From an uncultured Candidatus Saccharibacteria bacterium (GTDB taxonomy: Bacteria > Patescibacteriota > Minisyncoccia > Phycocordibacterales > PALSA-1337): a stretch of 64,000 nt of DNA. Both the position numbers and the translations under genes were made by a program. The stretch lies in the NCBI GenBank assembly GCA_964406895.1, contig CAYOTK010000006.1, positions 557 through 64,556 on the forward strand, read 5' to 3'. Below the pieces are notes generated by a model. It worked only from the letters and a program-made list of their open reading frames with translations, was not told where the DNA came from and did not search any database. Shown piece after piece: positions 11,234 to 64,000 of this stretch (position 1 is the first letter of the stretch; every line of letters starts with the position of its first letter).

Positions 11234-11257
11234 CGGGAATCTCGCCTTACAGGCGCT
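11234..11257. repeat. 24-nt direct repeat copy (cgggaatctcgccttacaggcgct), partner at 11835..11858; distal boundary of an ssrA-associated islet
   Basis: 24/24 identity with 11835..11858. Confidence 0.6.
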
Positions 11258-11823: not shown

Positions 11824-11842
11824 AGTGGAGATGGCGGGAATC
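11824..11842. repeat. 19-nt direct repeat of the ssrA 3' terminus (agtggagatggcgggaatc), partner at 12361..12379
   Basis: 19/19 identity to the tmRNA T-arm/acceptor 3' end; the next 16 nt instead continue into the 11234 repeat. Confidence 0.65.
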
Positions 11843-11867
11843 TCGCCTTACAGGCGCTGTACAGGTC

Positions 11868-12131: not shown

Positions 12132-12362
12132 ATTATTAATATAAAAAATTATGGTTTTTAAATGTTAAAACGCGCAATCAAAGATCAAAAACATATGCAA
12201 AAATGTCCTTCGACTACGCTTCGATCATATTATAAGATAATACATAGAGTTCGTGCCTCAGCTTCGCTCAGGGCACTCGCCTCTATTGCAATTCTCAATG
12301 TTCGTGGCACATGGTGGTTTACCACGAGCGAGTCCTTCGCGATTAGCGAAGGACGAGTCGAG

Positions 12363-12733
12363 TGGAGATGGCGGGAATCGAACCCGCGTGCAATCGAGAT
12401 TTGTCGGTTACTTCTACGATGATATCAAACTTTATCCGCAAAGCGGTTTAACAAATGTGCCCAAGAAAGTTTGCAAAAAGCACAATTGCGATCTCTATGT
12501 TTCGGGTCTTGGAGTGAGAAGTTCCACTACCCTACATCCAAGTTATTACGCCAACACTACAGTTAGGATCCCTGCAGAGTGACGGCACTTAAACAAGTGC
12601 GAATGCGAAGTCCTTGGCTCCGAAATACGGAGATACAGAAGATTTAGCATTTATGGTTTCTGTCAGATTTACGAGTTAACAGTGCTCGCATCGCATGACC
12701 GGAAATGTTCAATTGTCTAGACCGATCATCCCC
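12363..12733 (-). ncRNA. ssrA: tmRNA (SsrA)
   Basis: 5' GGGGATGATCGGTCTAGAC..., 3' GCGGGTTCGATTCCCGCCATCTCCA (T-arm and acceptor with G3:U70 alanine identity pair), located immediately downstream of smpB on the same strand. Candidate tag ORF GCT AAA ... CTT GTT TAA. Confidence 0.8.
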
Positions 12734-16220: not shown

Positions 16221-16380
16221 GGGCGACCGGAGCCACATACATAATTCAAGATTGAAACTGTTTGAGCGACCATAAATTTCTTAGAAAAAGCCGAACCGTG
16301 ATGACCTCGTGAGGCTTTTTCTTAGAAATTTAGGGAGCGAGTTTTTCAATCTTGAATTATGTATGTGGCTCCGGTCGCCC
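16221..16380. repeat. 160-bp element with perfect 37-bp terminal inverted repeats and nested inner palindrome
   Basis: gggcgaccggagccacatacataattcaagattgaaa (16221-16257) is exactly reverse-complemented at 16344-16380; inner 19-bp near-perfect IR aaatttcttagaaaaagcc / ggctttttcttagaaattt. Confidence 0.7.
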
Positions 16381-16391
16381 CTTCGCAAACC

Positions 16392-17762
16392 TCAAATTTC
16401 ATACTCTTCTCCACTTTCTGGTACGATGGCTTTCGTCATAAGCTCATTATTAATTCTTTGGGCCAAAAACATTTCTGATTTGGGTTCTCCCATAACCACA
16501 AAGACATTTTTCAATCTTTCTGTTGCTGTGGTCACGAATTCTACGAGATGATCACTGTCTTTGTGCGCTGAATATCCATACAGAGTCTCGATTTTTGCTT
16601 TGACAGGAATACTTTGACCATGAATGTTAACCTTCTTTGTCCCATCAGCCAGCCTTCTTCCCAGAGAACCAGCAGTCTGATAACCAACTAGCAAAATAGT
16701 ATTTCTCTCATCAGGCAGATAGTGTGCCTCATGACCAACCACCCTACCACCAACAGACATACCTGAACCGGCCAAAATAATCTTTGCACCTTTGAGCTTG
16801 TCTATATCTTGTGAATCATTCTTGGAAAAAGTAAATTCAAGGTGCGGAAAGGAAAATATATCATCGCCTTTTGCAATTTGCTCTTGAACTTTATCATTGA
16901 AAAGATGAGAGTTCTTTCTATAAACTTCGGTGGCCTTTATAGCCATTGGCGAATCTACGAATACAGGAACTCTAGGTATGCGATTTTTCTCTACCATATT
17001 GTTTAGCTCATAGAGCAGAACTTGAGTACGATCTACAGAAAATGCAGGAATAACTAGCGTGCCTCCGCGGGAAATCGTGCTCTTTACAACCTCTTCAAGT
17101 TTTTGAACTCTCGCTTCTTTCGACTCATGATTCCTGTCACCATATGTACTTTCAATAACCAAATAATCCACATCTCCAATATTTTCTGTATCTCGAAGCA
17201 ATGGTGCTGGTGAATTCCCGAGGTCACCTGAGAACAATATTTTCTTCTCAAGATTTTGCTCCATAATAGAGAACTCAAGCATTGATGAACCAAGAATATG
17301 ACCAGCATCCTTGAGGACGAGAGTCAATTCTGGACTGATTTTGATCTGCTCATGATATTGAAAAACTTTCCATTGATCAAATATTCGTGGCACATCTTGT
17401 TCAGAATACAGGGGTTCAACACCTCTTTCTTTGGCCTCAAATGCAAGCAATTGTACTGCATCTTCCAATACAATTCGTGCCAACTCTTTTGTCTGTGGAG
17501 TAGAATATATCGGACCCGAATAACCTTCTTTCACAAGTTTCGGTATACGACCAACATGATCCAAATGCGAGTGACTAATAATAAGCGCACTTATGCTAGA
17601 AATATCAAAACCAAAATCCAAATAATTCTCTTCCGAAGCAGTCCTCTCCCCTTGCACCAAGCCACAATCAATAAGAATATTGGTACCCGCCCCTGTAGTC
17701 AATAAAAAATTTGAACCCGTAACCGTGCTTACTCCTGTTAGAAATTTGATCTTCGATGACAT
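16392..17762 (-). CDS. beta-CASP family MBL-fold ribonuclease (COG1236-like RNA-processing metallo-beta-lactamase)
   Basis: ISHSHLDHVGRIPKLVKEGYSGPIYSTPQTKELARIVLEDA (HxHxDH MBL motif), beta-CASP region and C-terminal RNA-specificity domain; 456 aa. Confidence 0.7.
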   Translation of the reverse strand: MSSKIKFLTGVSTVTGSNFLLTTGAGTNILIDCGLVQGERTASEENYLDFGFDISSISALIISHSHLDHVGRIPKLVKEGYSGPIYSTPQTKELARIVLEDAVQLLAFEAKERGVEPLYSEQDVPRIFDQWKVFQYHEQIKISPELTLVLKDAGHILGSSMLEFSIMEQNLEKKILFSGDLGNSPAPLLRDTENIGDVDYLVIESTYGDRNHESKEARVQKLEEVVKSTISRGGTLVIPAFSVDRTQVLLYELNNMVEKNRIPRVPVFVDSPMAIKATEVYRKNSHLFNDKVQEQIAKGDDIFSFPHLEFTFSKNDSQDIDKLKGAKIILAGSGMSVGGRVVGHEAHYLPDERNTILLVGYQTAGSLGRRLADGTKKVNIHGQSIPVKAKIETLYGYSAHKDSDHLVEFVTTATERLKNVFVVMGEPKSEMFLAQRINNELMTKAIVPESGEEYEI

Positions 17763-20504: not shown

Positions 20505-20860
20505 TGTTGAAAACACCGTTGTATTATGATTTTTGTTTGATTGCAAGGTCGCCATTCCAAATTGCAACCGTATTCGTCTTCGACAGTCCCCGTATTATTT
20601 TTGTAAAATCTCGAACTCCACTCATCATGTACGGGAATTTTCACAAAAGCCAGCTTCCAAGGCTTCAGCTGGCATTTGGAAAATTCAACCGTACATTCTT
20701 CGTGGATTATTCGAGATTTTACAAAAATAATACGGGGGCTGTTCTCGACAAATACGGGCAATTTGTTCATGGCTCAAATCGCATTGCAATTAAAAAAAAC
20801 ACATCACAACGGTGTTTTACCTTCGTGGATTATTTGAGATTTTATAAAACACTATTATGC
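20505..20860. repeat. MITE-like repeat-rich intergenic insertion between adk and secY
   Basis: Perfect 28-bp IR (20588-20615 vs 20710-20737), outer 13-bp IR aaaacaccgttgt / acaacggtgtttt (20510-20522 vs 20806-20818), 29-nt direct repeat 20698-20726 vs 20821-20849 (27/29), hairpin gccagct/agctggc 20649-20673. Confidence 0.65.
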
Positions 20861-39192: not shown

Positions 39193-39374
39193 TGGTAATT
39201 GGTTATTAGTTCTTGGTAATTAGTAATCTCACAACAATAATATTATCTATATAAATATGTGTTGTTTTTGGAATAAAATAAGCTCTAACGAGCTAAGTAG
39301 CATACTAACAGAGCCGTATTTCGAAGTCAAGGCGTTATTATTGTTCCATCATTGAATATTAGAAAGTTTATGAG

Positions 39375-39540
39375 AAAACTCACGAATTGTATGATTTGAG
39401 GACCATTTCGCAAAGCACCATGTACTATTAGTTTGAATGATCACTCTCAGATGGTGCTGCGAATAGACAGCCCCATCGACTCTTCCCCTATTGTCGATGG
39501 GGCTGATCGTGGTCCTCAAATCATACAATTCGTGAGTTTT
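39375..39540. repeat. 166-bp element bounded by perfect 31-bp inverted repeats with internal 13-bp stem-loop, inserted between rpsS and rplB
   Basis: aaaactcacgaattgtatgatttgaggacca (39375-39405) is exactly reverse-complemented at 39510-39540; inner cagccccatcgac / gtcgatggggctg (39468-39480 vs 39493-39505). Confidence 0.7.
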
Positions 39541-39565
39541 CTTGATTATTTAAGTATAAAAATTA

Positions 39566-56490: not shown

Positions 56491-56575
56491 TATTTCAATT
56501 TAGCATTTTGTGCTAAAGATTAATTAAAGAAATTTTAAAGATTTAATCAAGATTTTATGAAAATATTGAGGTATA

Positions 56576-57889: not shown

Positions 57890-59779
57890 TCAGCCGCCAG
57901 CGTTCACTTTATGTGAATATGCGATGGAGGGATCGCCTTGATCATGCAAGGCCCCCGTCCTCCAGAGAAGATCAAAGCCTGAAAGGTATTTTTCGTCGGT
58001 GAAAAAAGAAGTTACGATCAAGAAATCATGTTTTGCTTTTACAGGAACGCGTTCCAAAACAACGGCCTGCAACCTGGCACGATCAGTAATTTTTTTAGAT
58101 AAAATAAATCTATTTTTATCATTACTTTTTCTAATTTCATCTGGTTTAATTGTGATTTTCTCGAGCGAAGCAAGGATCTTCTTACATACTTTCCCTTTTT
58201 CCAGAACATGATTAAGTGAATATTGAGTGAACACGGAAAAAGACCGTTCTTTATCATTTTTGCACACTTCAAAAACATAGGTTTTAAAGTAAACTGGGAT
58301 TATCTTATTTGTCTCATTTAACAAACCTAATTGAATCAACCATTTATAATTAAATAAAATAACATTGTTTCGAAATCCACCAAACTTTTCGAGTAATTTC
58401 TTTCGGTACAAAAACAAAATCGTAAAGACCGCGTAAAAACAGACAACATACCAGAATGAAAATTGCGAAACATGCGCTGAAGCAAATGGAATTCTGGCGA
58501 ACTTTTCGACCATAAAAAGTTCATATGAAAGCAAACCGTGCGCTATAAGACCGGTTGCATATGACAAAGTATAAGAAACATATCCAAGAATTCCTGTCAC
58601 AAAAACAAATAACATTGTCACAGGAATAAACGGCAGAACCAAAATATTCACGACCATACCAATAATAGATATCTGCCCCATCATATATAGAATGTATGGG
58701 GAAACGAAAATCTGAGTAGCAATAGTCGAGGCAACGATACCACGCATGCCGAATTTCTCTGGTATAAACAACAATTTTCCCTCTATGGGACTCGAGAGAA
58801 ACATAAGTCCCATAGTTGCCAAGAAAGAAAGTTGAAAAGATGGATCGTGCAACAGAATAAGCGGATTTTGGATGAGCATGATGAGCCCCGCAAAAGCCAA
58901 AGCGCGACCGACATTATAATCACGCCTGATCAAACTCGCCATAAGAGCGATACTAGCCATCACACACGACCTCACAACGGTTGCGCCACCACCGACTAGA
59001 ATTCCGAATGAAGCAATACCGACACCGCCAATTATTATTCCCCATATGCGAGGCAAGAACACGAGCATTCTTCTCATCGAATCAGCAACAATAGTGATGT
59101 TATAACCGGACAGAACAACAATATGTATCAATCCCACAGTCCTGAAATCATCTATGAGCTCTTTGCCCAAAGCGCTTTTTTCCCCCACCACGAGTCCAGC
59201 TGCCAGAGCTGCATGTGGTTCACCCAGTACATTTTCTAGATTTGAAACGAAGCCTCTTTTGAGAGAGTAAAGGGCGTATGGCACAGAATTTAACAATTTT
59301 ATAAACCATGAATGACTTGCATCAACTGAACTTGTTCCGTTTTCGTGGGATGAATTCCTATTACTCAATTCGAGCAGATCAATTCTTGCACTTTTCATTT
59401 CATAAAAAATATTATCTTTGGCAAGATAACCTTCATAATCGAAACTTCTACCATCATTGCTTCGAAAATTGAAAGGTTTAGATATTTTTCCAGCGAATTT
59501 GACCCTGTCTCCATATCTATATACAGGATAAAGTTTGGTTTTGACTCTTACCAATAATTCAGCACCGCAAATATCTAAGCTTTTTATGATGAAAACCTGA
59601 CCCGACTCTTTCCTTTCTGGCTCTTGTACTATCATACCCACGCTTTCAATATTCTTTTTCAAACAATCAGAAATATCTGGAGCACGAATTCTGGCTGAAG
59701 CAATCAATCTCATCAAAGCCAAACCAATGAAAATGCCCCAAAAGACATACGTACTCCTCGAATATTTGCTCATCATCAA
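57890..59779 (-). CDS. comEC: DNA internalization-related competence protein ComEC/Rec2 (channel domain only; no intact MBL domain)
   Basis: AGLVVGEKSALGKELIDDFRTVGLIHIVVLSGYNITIVA (Competence domain), multiple TM helices; 3' end uncertain because the last ~130 codons run through GC-rich, possibly noncoding sequence. Confidence 0.75.
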   Translation of the reverse strand: MMMSKYSRSTYVFWGIFIGLALMRLIASARIRAPDISDCLKKNIESVGMIVQEPERKESGQVFIIKSLDICGAELLVRVKTKLYPVYRYGDRVKFAGKISKPFNFRSNDGRSFDYEGYLAKDNIFYEMKSARIDLLELSNRNSSHENGTSSVDASHSWFIKLLNSVPYALYSLKRGFVSNLENVLGEPHAALAAGLVVGEKSALGKELIDDFRTVGLIHIVVLSGYNITIVADSMRRMLVFLPRIWGIIIGGVGIASFGILVGGGATVVRSCVMASIALMASLIRRDYNVGRALAFAGLIMLIQNPLILLHDPSFQLSFLATMGLMFLSSPIEGKLLFIPEKFGMRGIVASTIATQIFVSPYILYMMGQISIIGMVVNILVLPFIPVTMLFVFVTGILGYVSYTLSYATGLIAHGLLSYELFMVEKFARIPFASAHVSQFSFWYVVCFYAVFTILFLYRKKLLEKFGGFRNNVILFNYKWLIQLGLLNETNKIIPVYFKTYVFEVCKNDKERSFSVFTQYSLNHVLEKGKVCKKILASLEKITIKPDEIRKSNDKNRFILSKKITDRARLQAVVLERVPVKAKHDFLIVTSFFTDEKYLSGFDLLWRTGALHDQGDPSIAYSHKVNAGG

Positions 59780-59826
59780 ATCATACAGATCGATGATAAA
59801 GATTTTCTAAAGATTAAATAAAGATT

Positions 59827-60591
59827 TTATGAATTTCGAGGTCGGACCTTTTGGAGGTCGGACCTCAAAAAATCTTCTTCTGCTTGATTGAGCGCCTTCT
59901 TATACCTGGCACCTTTCACACCCTTTACTCTCGCTTCGCAGTCCGCCCAACTTCTGTGAACTTTAACAACATTGTTAACACAACTTACATATGAATAGGC
60001 CTTAGCTTTTGATCTAGAATTCGAATCTGATTTCCTTTTATTTGCATTTTCATCCAAAGAAACATTTAGAATATTTGGTATTGAGTAGTTCTGAATCGAC
60101 CCTGAATATAATGCAACCGGATTGCCATCAGCAAACGATGTAGCAATAATATCGCAACGTTCATTGCCTAATATTCCCACATGACCTCCTATGTATTTCC
60201 ATGTAATATTCATATTGCCCGCAATCATATCAAGTTCTTCCCATAGATCCCTGTTTGAAACATCATCTTTTGTTTTTGTTTTCCAACCATTTCTTTTCCA
60301 GCCTTTTATCCATTTAGTAAATCCGTCCAAAAGATATTTGGAGTCTGTAAATATAGTTATATCTTCTTTATTTGAAACTTCATCGATACTTTTTAGGGCT
60401 TCTATTGCAGCCATGATTTCCATGCGATTATTCGTAGTATCAGCAACAAAACCACCGATTTCTCTTATAGAGGTCGGACCTTTTGGAGGTCGGACCTCGA
60501 TAACGACTGCTCCCCACCCACCATTGCCAGGATTACCTCTAGAGGATCCGTCTGTAAATATTGTTATTCCCATAGTTCTAAATATTATCAC
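59827..60591 (-). CDS. rnhA: ribonuclease HI with C-terminal hybrid-binding (caulimovirus viroplasmin-like) domain
   Basis: IFTDGSSRGNPGNGGWGAVV ... TTNNRMEIMAAIEAL RNase H catalytic motifs; C-terminal YSYVSCVNNVVKVHRSWADCEARVKGVKGARYKKALNQAEE resembles the HBD. Confidence 0.8.
   Translation of the reverse strand: MIIFRTMGITIFTDGSSRGNPGNGGWGAVVIEVRPPKGPTSIREIGGFVADTTNNRMEIMAAIEALKSIDEVSNKEDITIFTDSKYLLDGFTKWIKGWKRNGWKTKTKDDVSNRDLWEELDMIAGNMNITWKYIGGHVGILGNERCDIIATSFADGNPVALYSGSIQNYSIPNILNVSLDENANKRKSDSNSRSKAKAYSYVSCVNNVVKVHRSWADCEARVKGVKGARYKKALNQAEEDFLRSDLQKVRPRNS
59838..59866. repeat. 29-nt twin-hairpin repeat copy 1 (gaggtcggaccttttggaggtcggacctc); encodes the C-terminal residues of rnhA
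   Basis: 29/29 identity with 60470-60498; each half aggtcggacct is a 5-bp hairpin. Confidence 0.7.
60470..60498. repeat. 29-nt twin-hairpin repeat copy 2, in-frame inside the rnhA catalytic domain (encodes EVRPPKGPTS)
   Basis: Exact copy of 59838-59866. Confidence 0.7.
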
Positions 60592-62314
60592 AAATATCTT
60601 CTACTCGTAGCCTCAGCTCTATTTTATTTCTATAGAATGATTTTTCAATAGATGCGACTAGATTTATCTTTTCATTCTCTTTTATATTGCACAGTCTACT
60701 ATTTTCCACACCAAAGAAAGAAATCGCTGATATTTTCTGCCCATTACCTTTATCAAAAACAAATTCTAAATGATTGTTTGTCTTGCCGAATCTCCTAACT
60801 TGGATAGGAATAATATTCTGGAAAAGAAAAAGTGGTTTTGGATTACCCATACCAAACGGTGAAAGACTCATAATATCATTAATGAAATCATTGTTTATAT
60901 CTTTGAGTGATAAAATAGCATCTATCATATCAACATTATCATTACAAACTTCTTTGTTTGCATTTACCTTGCAACATGCATCATTGATTCTCTGTTCCAA
61001 TTGAAATACATCTTCATTACTAACCACAAAACCTCCTGAATGTTTGTGACCACCATATTGTACGAAAGTGTCCATGTGCGATTCTTTCATGACTTCTACT
61101 ATGTTTGTTGTGCCTTCAGATCTACATGAACCTTTTATTGTATTGTCTCCATCTCTTCCCCAGAGGAAAACCGGCCTGTTGAATTCTTCAGCACAACTAT
61201 TAGCCACAAGTCCGAGCAAAGAAGGTCTCCATTCAGGGTTTCCAAGCACTATTGCATAAGGCAAACTTGTCTTATCCTTGCCATATCGATCGTGAATTAT
61301 CTTTTTTACTTCTTTGACCAATGAAGCGACCACACCCTTTCTTTCGTTATTTATATGTTCCAGTTTTTCCAAATATTCATGTGCCTCATCTTCATTCTCT
61401 GCAGAAAGCAGATTGAATGCATCCATGGGTGCGCCCATTCTGGAGGCGGCATTTATTCTTGGGGTAATCATGAAAGAAACATCATCTTCACTCAAATTCT
61501 TTTGTGAAATATTCAATTTCGAAAACAACTTTAGCAATCCCTTCCTAGGACTTTTCCGTAAAACCATAAGGCCGTAGTTCGCGAAAACTCTATTTTCACC
61601 CAATAAAGGCACCATATCTGACAATGTAGCGATGCCGACCATATCTAAAAGCCATTTTTCTTGTCCCTCCTTCATTCCCAATCTTTCTTTGGCGAGAATC
61701 CCCTGTATTAACTTGAAAACCACACCCGATCCACAAAGATTCTTATCAGGATAATTACAATCAACTTGCTTATGATCTACGATTGCATACGCTTCCGGCA
61801 AAACTTGTGGCGCTTCGTGATGATCAGTAATGATAACTTCCATGCCTAGCTCATTTGCCTTATCAACCGCTTTCTTATCAGCAATACCACAATCTGCTGT
61901 TATGATAAGTTTCACCCCCTGCTCTGCGATAGTGCTGACAGCTTCTTCATTCAGGCCAAAACCTTCATTGTGTCGATGAGGAATATAGATTATAAAGTTC
62001 TCATAATTTATCTTTTTGAAAAAATCCTTGAATATAACCGCCGCCGGTATTCCGTCCGCATCATAATCTGTATATACTGCTATCTTCTCATTGTTTTTTA
62101 TGGCATGAATGATTCTGTCTACGGCTTTTCCCATATCCTTGAATAGAAACGGATCATGCATATCTCTTTCGTAATCAGGTTCCTTGAATATACGCGCCGT
62201 TTCATTATCTTTTATACCTCTATGAAATAAAATATGAGAGATTATGTCATTGTGTTCACTTAGCTTGTTTCTTTCCTCAGCATTGAGTTGTCTGTGTATT
62301 TTGTATTTCTGCAT
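60578..62314 (-). CDS. recJ: single-stranded-DNA-specific exonuclease RecJ
   Basis: DHH motifs DYDADGIPAAVIF, ITDHHEAP, DHH-associated DHHA1 and OB-fold region; start set at MQKYK (62314) rather than the upstream extension. Confidence 0.85.
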   Translation of the reverse strand: MQKYKIHRQLNAEERNKLSEHNDIISHILFHRGIKDNETARIFKEPDYERDMHDPFLFKDMGKAVDRIIHAIKNNEKIAVYTDYDADGIPAAVIFKDFFKKINYENFIIYIPHRHNEGFGLNEEAVSTIAEQGVKLIITADCGIADKKAVDKANELGMEVIITDHHEAPQVLPEAYAIVDHKQVDCNYPDKNLCGSGVVFKLIQGILAKERLGMKEGQEKWLLDMVGIATLSDMVPLLGENRVFANYGLMVLRKSPRKGLLKLFSKLNISQKNLSEDDVSFMITPRINAASRMGAPMDAFNLLSAENEDEAHEYLEKLEHINNERKGVVASLVKEVKKIIHDRYGKDKTSLPYAIVLGNPEWRPSLLGLVANSCAEEFNRPVFLWGRDGDNTIKGSCRSEGTTNIVEVMKESHMDTFVQYGGHKHSGGFVVSNEDVFQLEQRINDACCKVNANKEVCNDNVDMIDAILSLKDINNDFINDIMSLSPFGMGNPKPLFLFQNIIPIQVRRFGKTNNHLEFVFDKGNGQKISAISFFGVENSRLCNIKENEKINLVASIEKSFYRNKIELRLRVEDICDNI

Positions 62315-62347
62315 GTGATAGGAGTATAACAGAAAACATACGAGTAA

Positions 62348-62374
62348 GGGCGGGGTGACTTCGTCACCCCGCCC
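62348..62374. other. GC-rich 12-bp stem hairpin with UUCG tetraloop (gggcggggtgac-ttcg-gtcaccccgccc)
   Basis: Perfect self-complementarity read directly; lies between recJ start and the upstream GC-rich gene. Confidence 0.6.
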
Positions 62375-62379
62375 AAAAG

Positions 62380-62628
62380 CTATCTCCTTTTCCACTCGCG
62401 TTCCTTCCATGTCACCGTGCCGTCTGCACGGACGATGAATGGGGAACTCTTAGTTGAAAGTGCGATTCGCAGGAAGTCCGTTCGGATGATTATCTCACTT
62501 CCGACCGTCTTCTGCAGGAGGTTTTGGAGAAACCCAAGGGTTGGTGGCACATTTTCGGCTTTCTCCAATTCCGAAAGCGCCACTTCCGTAAGTTCCCTCA
62601 AAACTAGGGAGTAATTGATATTTTTCAT
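62380..62628 (-). CDS. hypothetical protein (82 aa) in GC-enriched segment
   Basis: ORF only; composition ~52% GC. Confidence 0.3.
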   Translation of the reverse strand: MKNINYSLVLRELTEVALSELEKAENVPPTLGFLQNLLQKTVGSEIIIRTDFLRIALSTKSSPFIVRADGTVTWKEREWKRR

Positions 62629-62739
62629 CGTTCTAAGTTCACATACATATTGACATCAAAACTACTCCATGTCAACCGTCCGTTATGTTTCAATGCCTTT
62701 GCAACACCTGTCACTTTTTAGTATTGAAATGACAACAAA

Positions 62740-62772
62740 AAGGCCGGAGCGCGCACGCACGCTCCGGTTTGA
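62740..62772 (-). terminator. rho-independent terminator for the 341-aa GC-rich gene
   Basis: ccggagcg-cgcacgca-cgctccgg hairpin; on minus strand followed by TTTTTGTTGTC. Confidence 0.6.
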
Positions 62773-62808
62773 AATTGGCGACACCCGAGGGTGTCTCGGA
62801 AAACAGAC

Positions 62809-63834
62809 CTACATACCATGCATACTCAGAGGGGTTGAGGTCGTATCCTGACCCACTCCGCCGTCACCGGCATTCAGATAGTCAATCGGCGGTCCCATCT
62901 TTCTGACCGGTTCTCCGCCGTTGAGAACCTGAAGAAGGGTGCCGATGATCCTCGCTTCGCTGAGCGGTCCATCTTCAGCAGTATCCAAGATCGAATCGTA
63001 GTGTTCTTGAATCGTCTGGACTGAAACGCACGGCTCAGCCAGACGCCTGATGAGGCCGGCATACCTGACGGCATCGTCAAGTCCCAACAATCGCAGTACA
63101 CAGGCCAGTTGACCCTGATTGAAAGCGAGCGCCTGCGGCGCCTGCGCTTCCAAGGCCACCACAAGCAGGTCTCTTACTGTCGGTCCCAACCCACGAGGAT
63201 TATTGTGGGCGAGATCAAGCAACAGGCCCTTGAACTGCGCAACCGTAACCAACGGCGGCGCCGGATCTTCCCTCTGCGGTTTCGGCGGCAGGACCACCAT
63301 CTGTTGCGCAGCCAGGGACGCAGGAATCTGAAGATCGTCGGTGTACGCGAGTTCTTTGTGACGCGGGGCAATGTCATTCGCCAGCCGTATGATTGTCTGG
63401 ATAGTTCTTTCATCACTAGACGCCCTTTTGATCGCAGCCGTAACCGCAGGCGCGTGATTAGCCAACACCGTTAACAAATGACCGGTGTCGATCTTCGAAC
63501 GACCTGAGGCATGTGCTTCCCGTTCGACCGAGTCCATAAGCACCCTCATCGTATCGGACAGGTCATCGCTGGAAACGTTGCAATCACGGATGAGCCAATC
63601 CGTCATACCATGAGATATGCGGAGCGGATCTACGAGGTGCAATTCTTCAAGGACGCTGAAAGCCACTGTAAGACGGATCGACAGCAGCCCCCGAAACACA
63701 TCGTCAGATTCGACGCGTCCAGCACCACCCCACTGAGCATGACCCTTCGCCCACCTCAAAACCCGCAAGGAGGCAGCTGTGAACGTTCTATCACTTATTT
63801 CAAACGGCATAGTTTTACCTTTCCCTTCAATCAA
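62809..63834 (-). CDS. orphan hypothetical protein in ~60% GC island; weak resemblance to Clp N-terminal repeat domains
   Basis: 341 aa; segments FTAASLRVLRWAKGHA ... and IDTGHLLTVLANHA are reminiscent of Clp_N repeats (low confidence). Confidence 0.35.
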   Translation of the reverse strand: MIEGKGKTMPFEISDRTFTAASLRVLRWAKGHAQWGGAGRVESDDVFRGLLSIRLTVAFSVLEELHLVDPLRISHGMTDWLIRDCNVSSDDLSDTMRVLMDSVEREAHASGRSKIDTGHLLTVLANHAPAVTAAIKRASSDERTIQTIIRLANDIAPRHKELAYTDDLQIPASLAAQQMVVLPPKPQREDPAPPLVTVAQFKGLLLDLAHNNPRGLGPTVRDLLVVALEAQAPQALAFNQGQLACVLRLLGLDDAVRYAGLIRRLAEPCVSVQTIQEHYDSILDTAEDGPLSEARIIGTLLQVLNGGEPVRKMGPPIDYLNAGDGGVGQDTTSTPLSMHGM

Positions 63835-63928
63835 CCCTCATTGGCTGATCGAGTTTGTCACAGATTACAATGAAGAATATGCCGATGTCAATATTCCGCG
63901 CCCCACCTTTACCTCATATAATACATCC

Positions 63929-64000
63929 ATGGACTGCATTTTTTGCAAAATTGTTAAGAAGGAAATTCCTGCTCATATAGTCTATGAAGACACAAACTTT
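63929..64000 (+). CDS. HIT-family (histidine triad) protein, N-terminal fragment; window ends inside the gene
   Basis: MDCIFCKIVKKEIPAHIVYEDTNF matches the HIT N-terminal consensus (CIFCKI..GEIPA..VYED). Confidence 0.55.
   Translation, partial: MDCIFCKIVKKEIPAHIVYEDTNF

Follow-up and report, generated by a model that had tools for sequence, protein, structure and literature searches.

Ribonuclease HI, the product of rnhA, is encoded towards the end of a 64,000-nt stretch of DNA from an uncultured Candidatus Saccharibacteria bacterium (contig CAYOTK010000006.1 of assembly GCA_964406895.1). This whole stretch is called the window in what follows. The gene lies on the reverse strand between recJ and comEC, and the same 29-nt sequence is found twice in its reading frame, once inside the part coding for the RNase H catalytic domain and once close to the stop codon. 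This repeat, its relatives in genomes of the Patescibacteria, or Candidate Phyla Radiation (CPR), and the transposase genes that stand beside some of these relatives are the subject of the present work. Coordinates are collected in Table 1.

A repeat read in two frames of rnhA

The 29-mer, GAGGTCGGACCTTTTGGAGGTCGGACCTC, occurs exactly twice in the window, on the forward strand, as perfect direct repeats that lie 632 bp apart. Their identity, reported in the initial annotation, was confirmed by exact matching at both places. No 29-mer match appeared in 100 dinucleotide-preserving shuffles, and no further copy was found in the window with up to three mismatches allowed. The 13-nt half-site GAGGTCGGACCTC, searched with up to two mismatches, was confined to the two repeat copies, while 0.38 matches are expected in the window. 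The repeat is genuine and far from random.

Two units of a 13-nt palindrome, RAGGTC-S-GACCTY, make up the 29-mer; the palindrome has an odd centre and recurs with a 16-nt period. The window holds four units of this palindrome, all in rnhA, and they read RAGGTCSGACCTY. Both units of each doublet are G-centred and are therefore in direct orientation.

The predicted minimum-energy fold of the 29-mer is a single hairpin of 11 pairs, with one 1x1 mismatch and a 5-nt loop. The fold energies of the two DNA strands are -10.3 kcal/mol (z = -4.75) and -8.5 kcal/mol, and that of the RNA, as it would occur in the mRNA, is -16.4 kcal/mol; across the DNA and RNA folds, z is about -4 to -5. A lone 13-mer forms a weak 5-bp stem with a 3-nt loop (-2.4 kcal/mol). 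The repeat had been described as a twin hairpin. The 5-bp hairpin of each half can indeed form, but it is not the minimum-energy fold, the single 11-pair hairpin being favoured. Doublets of the same motif family in other genomes reach predicted fold energies of -14 to -22 kcal/mol. No intrinsic terminator was detected at the repeats, which have no T-tract. A scan of the window with Rfam 15 gave the tmRNA and one tRNA only, and no match for the repeat.

Copy 2 is translated in frame between the conserved GGWGAV and TTNNRME blocks of the enzyme, as first annotated, at a position where length varies among orthologues. In the AlphaFold model, strands 16-26 and 35-46 make up the beta2-beta3 hairpin and the encoded decapeptide lies at its tip (loop 27-34), with a predicted local distance difference test (pLDDT) score of about 83-85. 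The length of this tip is variable among RNase H orthologues. Copy 1 is located about 10 codons downstream of the Cauli_VI match and just upstream of comEC. It replaces and extends the native C-terminal tail, which becomes RSDLQKVRPRNS. Hence, copy 1 does encode C-terminal residues, as claimed at first, but it does not cover the stop: the repeat ends 8 nt before the TAA codon and supplies a tail, not a stop codon. Since identical DNA is translated in two frames in the two copies, an explanation at the protein level is excluded.

RnhA has 7918 homologues, annotated as ribonuclease HI of Paceibacterota/Parcubacteria (CPR/Patescibacteria), and peptides encoded by the motif are present in only 3 of the 120 closest RNase H proteins. 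The recJ-rnhA-comEC gene order is kept in the relatives L001 and L002. At 98% amino acid identity (L003), the loop copy has one mismatch and the tail copy four. At 86% (L002), the tail copy is identical and the loop copy has the same length but is degenerate (19/30 nt). At 69% (P0003), both copies are absent. At 65% (L001), the tail copy is absent and the loop copy, GAGGTCGGACCTCGAGGAGGTCCGACCTC, stands in the same register. Outside the element, the rnhA genes of the window and of L001 share 63.8% of their nucleotides and 40% of their third codon positions; in the ten loop codons, 26 of the 30 nucleotides and all ten third positions are identical. Thus, the element has been maintained or refreshed as DNA and not as a peptide.

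The loop copy had been thought of as a possibly unique, clean 10-aa insert. This view needs some correction, because L001 carries it in register and L002 has a degenerate version of the same length. The net gain over element-free orthologues is about 5-6 aa. These orthologues are at most 69% identical to RnhA of the window, so that no clean empty site is definable for the loop and, given this divergence, neither are insertion boundaries or target duplications of the loop copy. Full-length rnhA is intact in all three independent assemblies of the window's clade. An assembly artefact was ruled out, as independent ENA and Logan assemblies hold the same or slightly diverged copies.

A family of palindromes in CPR genomes

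The initial annotation called for a search for other copies, and copies turned out to occur beyond rnhA: doublets of the palindrome in many CPR genomes and the exact 29-mer in one other genome. The pattern GGTCSGACCT-N(1-14)-AGGTCSGACC, scanned in one genome per GTDB species, gave at least 117 loci. Among the matches listed, to which the following counts refer, the core GGTCSGACC is invariant, an invariance that is built in since the scan pattern itself fixes this core. G+C content is below 55% in 89 of the 117. The record titles of these low-GC loci are mostly those of Patescibacteria (Paceibacterota, Saccharibacteria, Kaiser-, Nomura-, Taylor-, Nealson-, Moranbacteria, and others), and the 89 loci contain 242 cores vs. 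2.0 expected from base composition. The remaining matches come from high-GC actinobacterial genomes where, on a rough estimate, they are expected by chance. On the side left free by the scan pattern, the first flanking position is complementary in 93% of cases. The second is complementary in 70% and covaries (A-T 90, G-C 59). From the third onward, complementarity is about 30-40%, near background. On this basis, the unit is defined as RAGGTC-S-GACCTY, with a covarying outermost pair.

Adjacent units are inverted in 89 pairs and direct in 24, the direct class having its peak at the 16-nt period that is also that of the window. Spacers and outer flanks are alike within a genome and unlike between genomes. 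Several other metagenome-assembled genomes (MAGs) have 3-6 loci each. A metagenome scan for the window-type doublet with a 16-nt period found ten loci, seven of which come from the JALOBW01 organism (= Ga0265297). The latter harbors at least 12 clusters of the 16-nt unit, in arrays of 2-8 and mostly intergenic, including one 29-mer identical to that of the window. When the fetched loci were compared with the window by blastn, only the rnhA-clade contigs L002 and L003 matched. Thus, contigs carrying the 16-nt unit but with no blastn likeness to the window indicate that different organisms share one repeat subfamily. No exact 29-mer was found in viral contigs. The 16-nt unit also forms eight-unit tandem arrays, both apparently intergenic, at 2128-2252 of L078 and 5519-5639 of L125. 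As 16 is not a multiple of 3, such arrays have a 48-nt super-period, which would encode GPTSKRSDLQKVRPPK if translated.

In-frame copies are not peculiar to rnhA. About 40% of the doublets (59/138 among the matches listed) lie well inside open reading frames (ORFs) of at least 150 aa. According to Pfam, the hosts related to DNA metabolism are the NAD-dependent DNA ligase LigA (four genomes), TopA (two), UvrB, a UvrD-like helicase-nuclease, an SMC_N-family ATPase (RecF/RecN/SMC), DinB, UDG, MPG, and DprA. Those related to translation and tRNA are GatA (two), GatB (two), Leu- and Ile-type tRNA synthetases, TGT, the formyltransferase Fmt, the deformylase Def, and TsaD. CTP synthase, a class-V aminotransferase (two), glycosyltransferases, and one Y1 transposase gene complete the list. 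The motif is translated in several frames, giving RSDL, VGP/VRP, or GPT/GRT. Even a single site may be read in different frames, as in LigA (L008 vs. L063) and in the aminotransferase (L066 vs. L091). In the LigA alignment, one site is filled in L022 only and a second one is filled in L008 and L054 but empty in L022; GatB shows the same kind of presence and absence between L034 and L115. Conservation of the peptide itself is ruled out as an explanation by the different frames of the two rnhA copies and by the several frames used in unrelated genes.

These hosts bear on a first alternative, in which the hairpins would be selected, functional cis-elements of rnhA and other DNA-metabolism genes, the link with a transposase described below being secondary. 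They might set mRNA stability or translation as hairpins, shield the 3' end between rnhA and comEC, or bind a dimeric protein. Many hosts are indeed DNA repair or replication genes, the loop copy is held in register with all third positions identical at 65% amino acid identity (L001), and the 6-1-6 palindromic unit resembles a dimer-binding site. Moreover, the RNA hairpin is stable (-16.4 kcal/mol), and copy 1 lies where one ORF ends and the next gene runs in the same direction, the typical place of REPs (repetitive extragenic palindromes), for which action as RNA has been argued (PMC3733652). However, the motif is also hosted by GatA/B, aminoacyl-tRNA synthetases, Def, Fmt, TsaD, and glycosyltransferases, and by many intergenic sites; the loop is degenerate in the 86% orthologue and missing from the 69% one; there is neither a T-tract terminator nor an Rfam match; and flanks and spacers are genome-specific, as expected of proliferating repeats. 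We regard selected cis-elements as an unlikely origin of the repeat.

In DprA of another CPR MAG (L090), two 120-nt repeats (1031-1150 and 1721-1840), 98% identical and containing REP units, lie 690 nt apart. Both are in frame and they bracket the core domain, which parallels the rnhA pair bracketing most of the gene.

Direct copies at such a distance could also be recombination substrates. A programmed or recurrent 632-bp deletion would then inactivate rnhA or release its core in circular form, by a site-specific route (tyrosine-recombinase-like core), through RecA, or by replication slippage. The initial annotation had considered deletion or inversion; since the repeats are direct, only deletion could occur. 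Three features would suit such a scheme: the copies are perfect and 632 bp apart, each consists of two 11-nt arms around a 7-nt spacer, with near-inverted symmetry, and the DprA core of L090 is likewise flanked by two in-frame repeats. Nevertheless, the full gene is found in all three assemblies of the clade, and the deletion would be irreversible, its product being a truncated peptide of some 45 aa. Neither a dedicated switch nor a dif-like site is compatible with the many motif loci per genome, and the GC skew does not switch at this locus. Finally, 29 bp is short for efficient RecA-dependent recombination. Taken together, a deletion system appears very improbable.

A Xer/dif terminus site was also considered, in view of the layout of about 11-7-11. 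It was rejected because two copies lie 632 bp apart, many copies exist in other genomes, and the cumulative GC skew is monotonic across the window, with no switch at the locus. A DNA uptake sequence, an idea arising from the adjacent comEC, was rejected as well: with four units in 64 kb, the density is far below about 1/kb.

Y1 transposases associated with the family and related systems

In locus L078, from MAG JALOBW01, a 237-aa gene displays HUH and catalytic-Tyr motifs, among the sequences YHVYNRG, MPNHFHLL (HUH), and YIHFNP. It is flanked on the left by the doublet GAGGTCGGACCTTGATCGAGGTCCGACCTC and on the right by eight tandem copies of GGTCCGACCTCCAAAA, which is the 16-nt unit of the window itself. 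The protein passes the Pfam Y1_Tnp model (1.6e-6, 28.7 vs. a cut-off of 23). Its sole NCBIfam match is REP_Tyr_transpos (NF047646), with 36.2 bits and below the cut-off of 80. A tblastn search revealed homologues in eight loci, all fetched by the DNA motif alone. In five of them (L078, L030, L043, L033, and L042), doublets are found within 9-101 nt on both sides of the Y1 gene. A repeat-flanked Y1 gene is the arrangement known as a REPtron.

The protein databases hold about 2000 homologues of the L078 transposase, all of them Y1_Tnp proteins named plainly "transposase." Its structure was predicted with a pLDDT of 85.6. The best structural match is 4ER8, the Escherichia coli REP-associated tyrosine transposase (RAYT) with a REP hairpin (E = 4.6e-6), followed by ISDra2, IS608, and IS200 TnpA. 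A single-sequence phmmer search against the PDB gave noise only. The CPR transposase clade is distant from curated RAYTs.

Other Y1 genes were noticed in the fetched loci. L027 (100-1000) and L008 (6650-7500) contain RAYT-like paralogues flanked by other palindromes, GCGTTAGGTCTTGCCTAACGC and CTGCGGGTGTCCAACACCCGCAG, from which CPR genomes appear to hold several transposase-repeat pairs. In a Moraniibacteriota MAG (L104, 3108-3782), the Y1 transposase gene itself has an in-frame GGTCSGACC doublet near its N-terminus.

Systems of this kind are known in other bacteria. Intragenic REPs were described in Proteobacteria, Opitutus, and Rickettsia, where over half of the inserts are dimers. Double inserts in one ORF occur, as do REPs at ORF 3' ends, and hosts are biased toward genes for the synthesis and repair of DNA (uvrA/B/D, ligase, polymerases) and toward tRNA synthetases. 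The palindromes carry a GTAG or CGTC tetranucleotide tag at one end, and REPs of the CGTC type have no dedicated transposase. The same study dealt with REPtrons and TIRtrons and reported paralogue-specific palindromes for multiple REPtrons (Di Nocera et al., 2013, PMC3733652).

The CPR family resembles the REP/REPIN-RAYT systems (E. coli TnpA-REP 4ER8, Pseudomonas) in many respects: short hairpin repeats are found as singles, doublets, and arrays, a Y1/HUH gene is flanked by the repeat, variants are genome-specific, copies occur at ORF 3' ends, and the transposase has a 4ER8-like fold. It differs in its unit, which is only 13 nt long and self-palindromic with an odd centre, and in its longer transposase (about 220-240 aa). 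Elsewhere, REP sequences are usually species- or genus-specific; in contrast, the 9-nt CPR core GGTCSGACC is common to many CPR lineage names.

Another point of comparison is provided by the Rickettsia palindromic elements (RPE), which Ogata and co-workers are said to have described in 2000 as in-frame inserts in protein-coding genes. Like intragenic REPs and RPE, the CPR elements are translated, in-frame palindromes of housekeeping genes, with double inserts, some C-terminal positions, and a host bias toward DNA synthesis and repair genes and tRNA synthetases. They are located in real ORFs, keep the frame, and are missing from some orthologues (rnhA, LigA, GatB, TopA, GatA, and the class-V aminotransferase). 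They belong to another sequence family and another host phylum, and their inserts are shorter (10-15 aa; REP dimers add 20-30 aa and RPE-1 adds 30-50 aa). RPE have no known transposase, whereas the CPR family has a linked Y1 gene.

IS200/IS605 insertion sequences and their derivatives, resembling palindrome-associated or miniature inverted-repeat transposable elements (PATEs or MITEs), share with the CPR system an HUH Y1 transposase, subterminal hairpins, and scattered hairpin-only derivatives. In contrast to them, the CPR system is devoid of a TnpB gene, its repeats far outnumber the gene and are arranged in doublets and arrays, and the top structural match of its transposase is a RAYT, not IS608 or ISDra2 TnpA.

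Could the family spread without the Y1 enzyme? Gene conversion, self-templating hairpin slippage, or another enzyme would then be at work, the motifs around Y1 genes would be IS200-like ends or the outcome of a preference for nearby insertion, and in rnhA the two copies would be solo ends or derivatives of the MITE/PATE kind. Tandem arrays with a 16-nt period do resemble slippage products, the Y1 paralogues of L027 and L008 are flanked by different palindromes, and CGTC-type REPs offer a precedent for repeats with no dedicated transposase (PMC3733652). Yet the motif is present on both sides, within about 100 nt, of five of eight Y1 genes whose loci had been fetched by the motif alone. Further, the best structural match is a REP-associated transposase, and paralogue-specific palindromes agree with the multiple REPtrons already reported. 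Dispersal of the family by other means is accordingly held to be highly improbable.

A search of full-text literature for the motif string returned unrelated primers and constructs only; its coverage is incomplete and the family is not proven to be undescribed. Neither RAYT nor REPIN is mentioned in any of the top-ranked CPR/Patescibacteria papers, again within incomplete coverage. The kind of element has been known since the intragenic REPs of 2013, and the GGTCSGACC family with its cognate Y1 transposase in CPR is apparently undescribed.

Origin of the repeat and other features of the window

We consider, with good confidence, that the 29-mer of rnhA is a REP-like element array belonging to a Y1-transposase-associated family that is widespread in Patescibacteria/CPR and tolerated in frame. 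In the proposed mechanism, units present as doublets or short tandem arrays would form a single long hairpin when the DNA is single-stranded or in RNA. A RAYT/IS200-like Y1 transposase would recognize this hairpin on single-stranded DNA and disperse or duplicate the repeats, and copies landing in tolerant sites with the frame kept would survive. In rnhA, one copy would thus have settled at the beta2-beta3 tip as EVRPPKGPTS and the other as a new C-terminal tail. Membership in the family, its dispersal among genomes, in-frame tolerance, the association with a transposase in relatives, and maintenance at the nucleotide level are demonstrated, whereas movement of the repeats by the transposase, the origin of the two rnhA copies, and any effect on the mRNA are inferred. 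The first suggestion of a small mobile repeat tolerated in frame has gained substance: the repeat is read in different frames, it is present in some orthologues and absent from others, it flanks Y1 genes in relatives, and it is probably mobile.

The 29/29 identity of the rnhA copies is most likely due to recent re-insertion or gene conversion, not to selection on the protein. The presence of both identical copies in one gene may result from local re-insertion, gene conversion, or targeting of pre-existing hairpins. Gene conversion between the copies fits the degenerate loop of L002 and the degenerate tail of L003.

Several observations speak against this reading. The window holds just two copies in 64 kb, both in rnhA, and no Y1 transposase gene was found in it by tblastn or by searches with hidden Markov models (HMMs); the window copies could be relics. 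A profile search of the PDB with the transposase gave Y1 transposases only, with marginal E values (0.03-0.08), and the protein remains under the NCBI RAYT cut-off (36 vs. 80 bits). No GTAG or CGTC tag is seen at the ends of the window copies or of the listed family units. The doublets of the window are direct, unlike REPINs, and most doublets of the family are inverted (89 vs. 24). Finally, the element could also be conserved at one orthologous site because of a function, and not through selfish persistence.

The window contains other repeats and structured elements (Table 1). The ~160-bp element at 16221-16380 is located between ORFs, directly beside the 3' end of a 456-aa ORF; it may be MITE-like or represent a long terminator hairpin. 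The ~170-bp element is located in a 500-bp stretch with no ORF of at least 60 aa and has no Rfam match. The two copies of CGGGAATCTCGCCTTACAGGCGCT contain a small hairpin and enclose a segment of about 600 bp immediately upstream of the tmRNA gene; they may be the duplicated attachment site of a small insertion beside ssrA. An AT-rich repeat directly downstream of rnhA and upstream of comEC recurs 3.3 kb away and may be a shared promoter or intergenic motif. The last 2 kb have a higher G+C content than the rest of the window; neither rRNA nor any other Rfam family was detected in them.

Table 1. Features of the 64-kb window (positions are those of the window).
Feature	Position	Strand	Description
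Repeat copy 1	59838-59866	+	exact match; units GAGGTCGGACCTT (59838-59850) and GAGGTCGGACCTC (59854-59866); last 13 codons of rnhA, read as RSDLQKVRPR in frame 2
Repeat copy 2	60470-60498	+	exact match; units 60470-60482 and 60486-60498; inside RNase H catalytic domain, frame 0, EVRPPKGPTS (residues E26-S35)
rnhA	59827-60573	-	RNase HI with C-terminal hybrid-binding (Cauli_VI) domain; alternative GTG start at 60591
RNase H catalytic domain	60136-60567	-	aa 3-146; Pfam RNase_H, 1.8e-40; copy 2 near its N-terminus
Cauli_VI hybrid-binding match	59896-59964	-	aa 204-226; Pfam, 8.2e-6
recJ	60578-62410	-	neighbour of rnhA
comEC	57890-59779	-	neighbour of rnhA
AT-rich repeat	59797-59833 and 56514-56561		TAAAGATTT...AAGATTTTATGAA; 86% identical
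~160-bp element	16221-16380		perfect 37-nt terminal inverted arms and internal palindrome; cttagaaaaagcc...ggctttttcttagaaa
456-aa ORF	16392-17762	-	adjacent to the ~160-bp element
~170-bp element	39373-39542		GC-rich hairpin between perfect inverted arms of 33 nt; cagccccatcgac...gtcgatggggctg
Nested inverted repeats	20510-20850		48-nt arms (88% complementary) and 25-nt arms; 29-nt direct repeat (20698/20821)
24-nt direct repeat	11234-11257 and 11835-11858		CGGGAATCTCGCCTTACAGGCGCT, exact
tmRNA gene (ssrA)	12360-12733	-	Rfam 15
G+C-rich end	62001-64000		G+C 0.49 vs. about 0.38 in the rest of the window

Beyond the preferred reading of a REP-like array, we tentatively envisage an ancient REP-RAYT partnership across the Patescibacteria superphylum, with copies kept or refreshed at fixed sites of replication and repair genes, a proposal that we hold more doubtful than not. 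If true, the fixed sites (the rnhA beta-hairpin and the loops of LigA, TopA, and GatA/B) would point to site-specific homing or, alternatively, to a co-opted function, for instance hairpin-dependent control of DNA-metabolism genes. Direct copies bracketing a catalytic core, as in rnhA and in DprA of L090, might then make the segment mobilisable or deletable.

At the level of the gene, an odd feature of the essential rnhA would be explained as ordinary selfish DNA that is not specific to rnhA. For annotation, extra loops and tails in CPR proteins would stem from repeats and not be lineage-specific functional motifs. For the assembly of MAGs, exact hairpin repeats of 25-45 nt can break or misjoin contigs. 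The family offers RAYT biology a short conserved target, GGTCSGACC, that can be tested biochemically. Finally, it raises for mobile-DNA biology the question of how such elements are tolerated and kept in streamlined genomes of 1 Mb.

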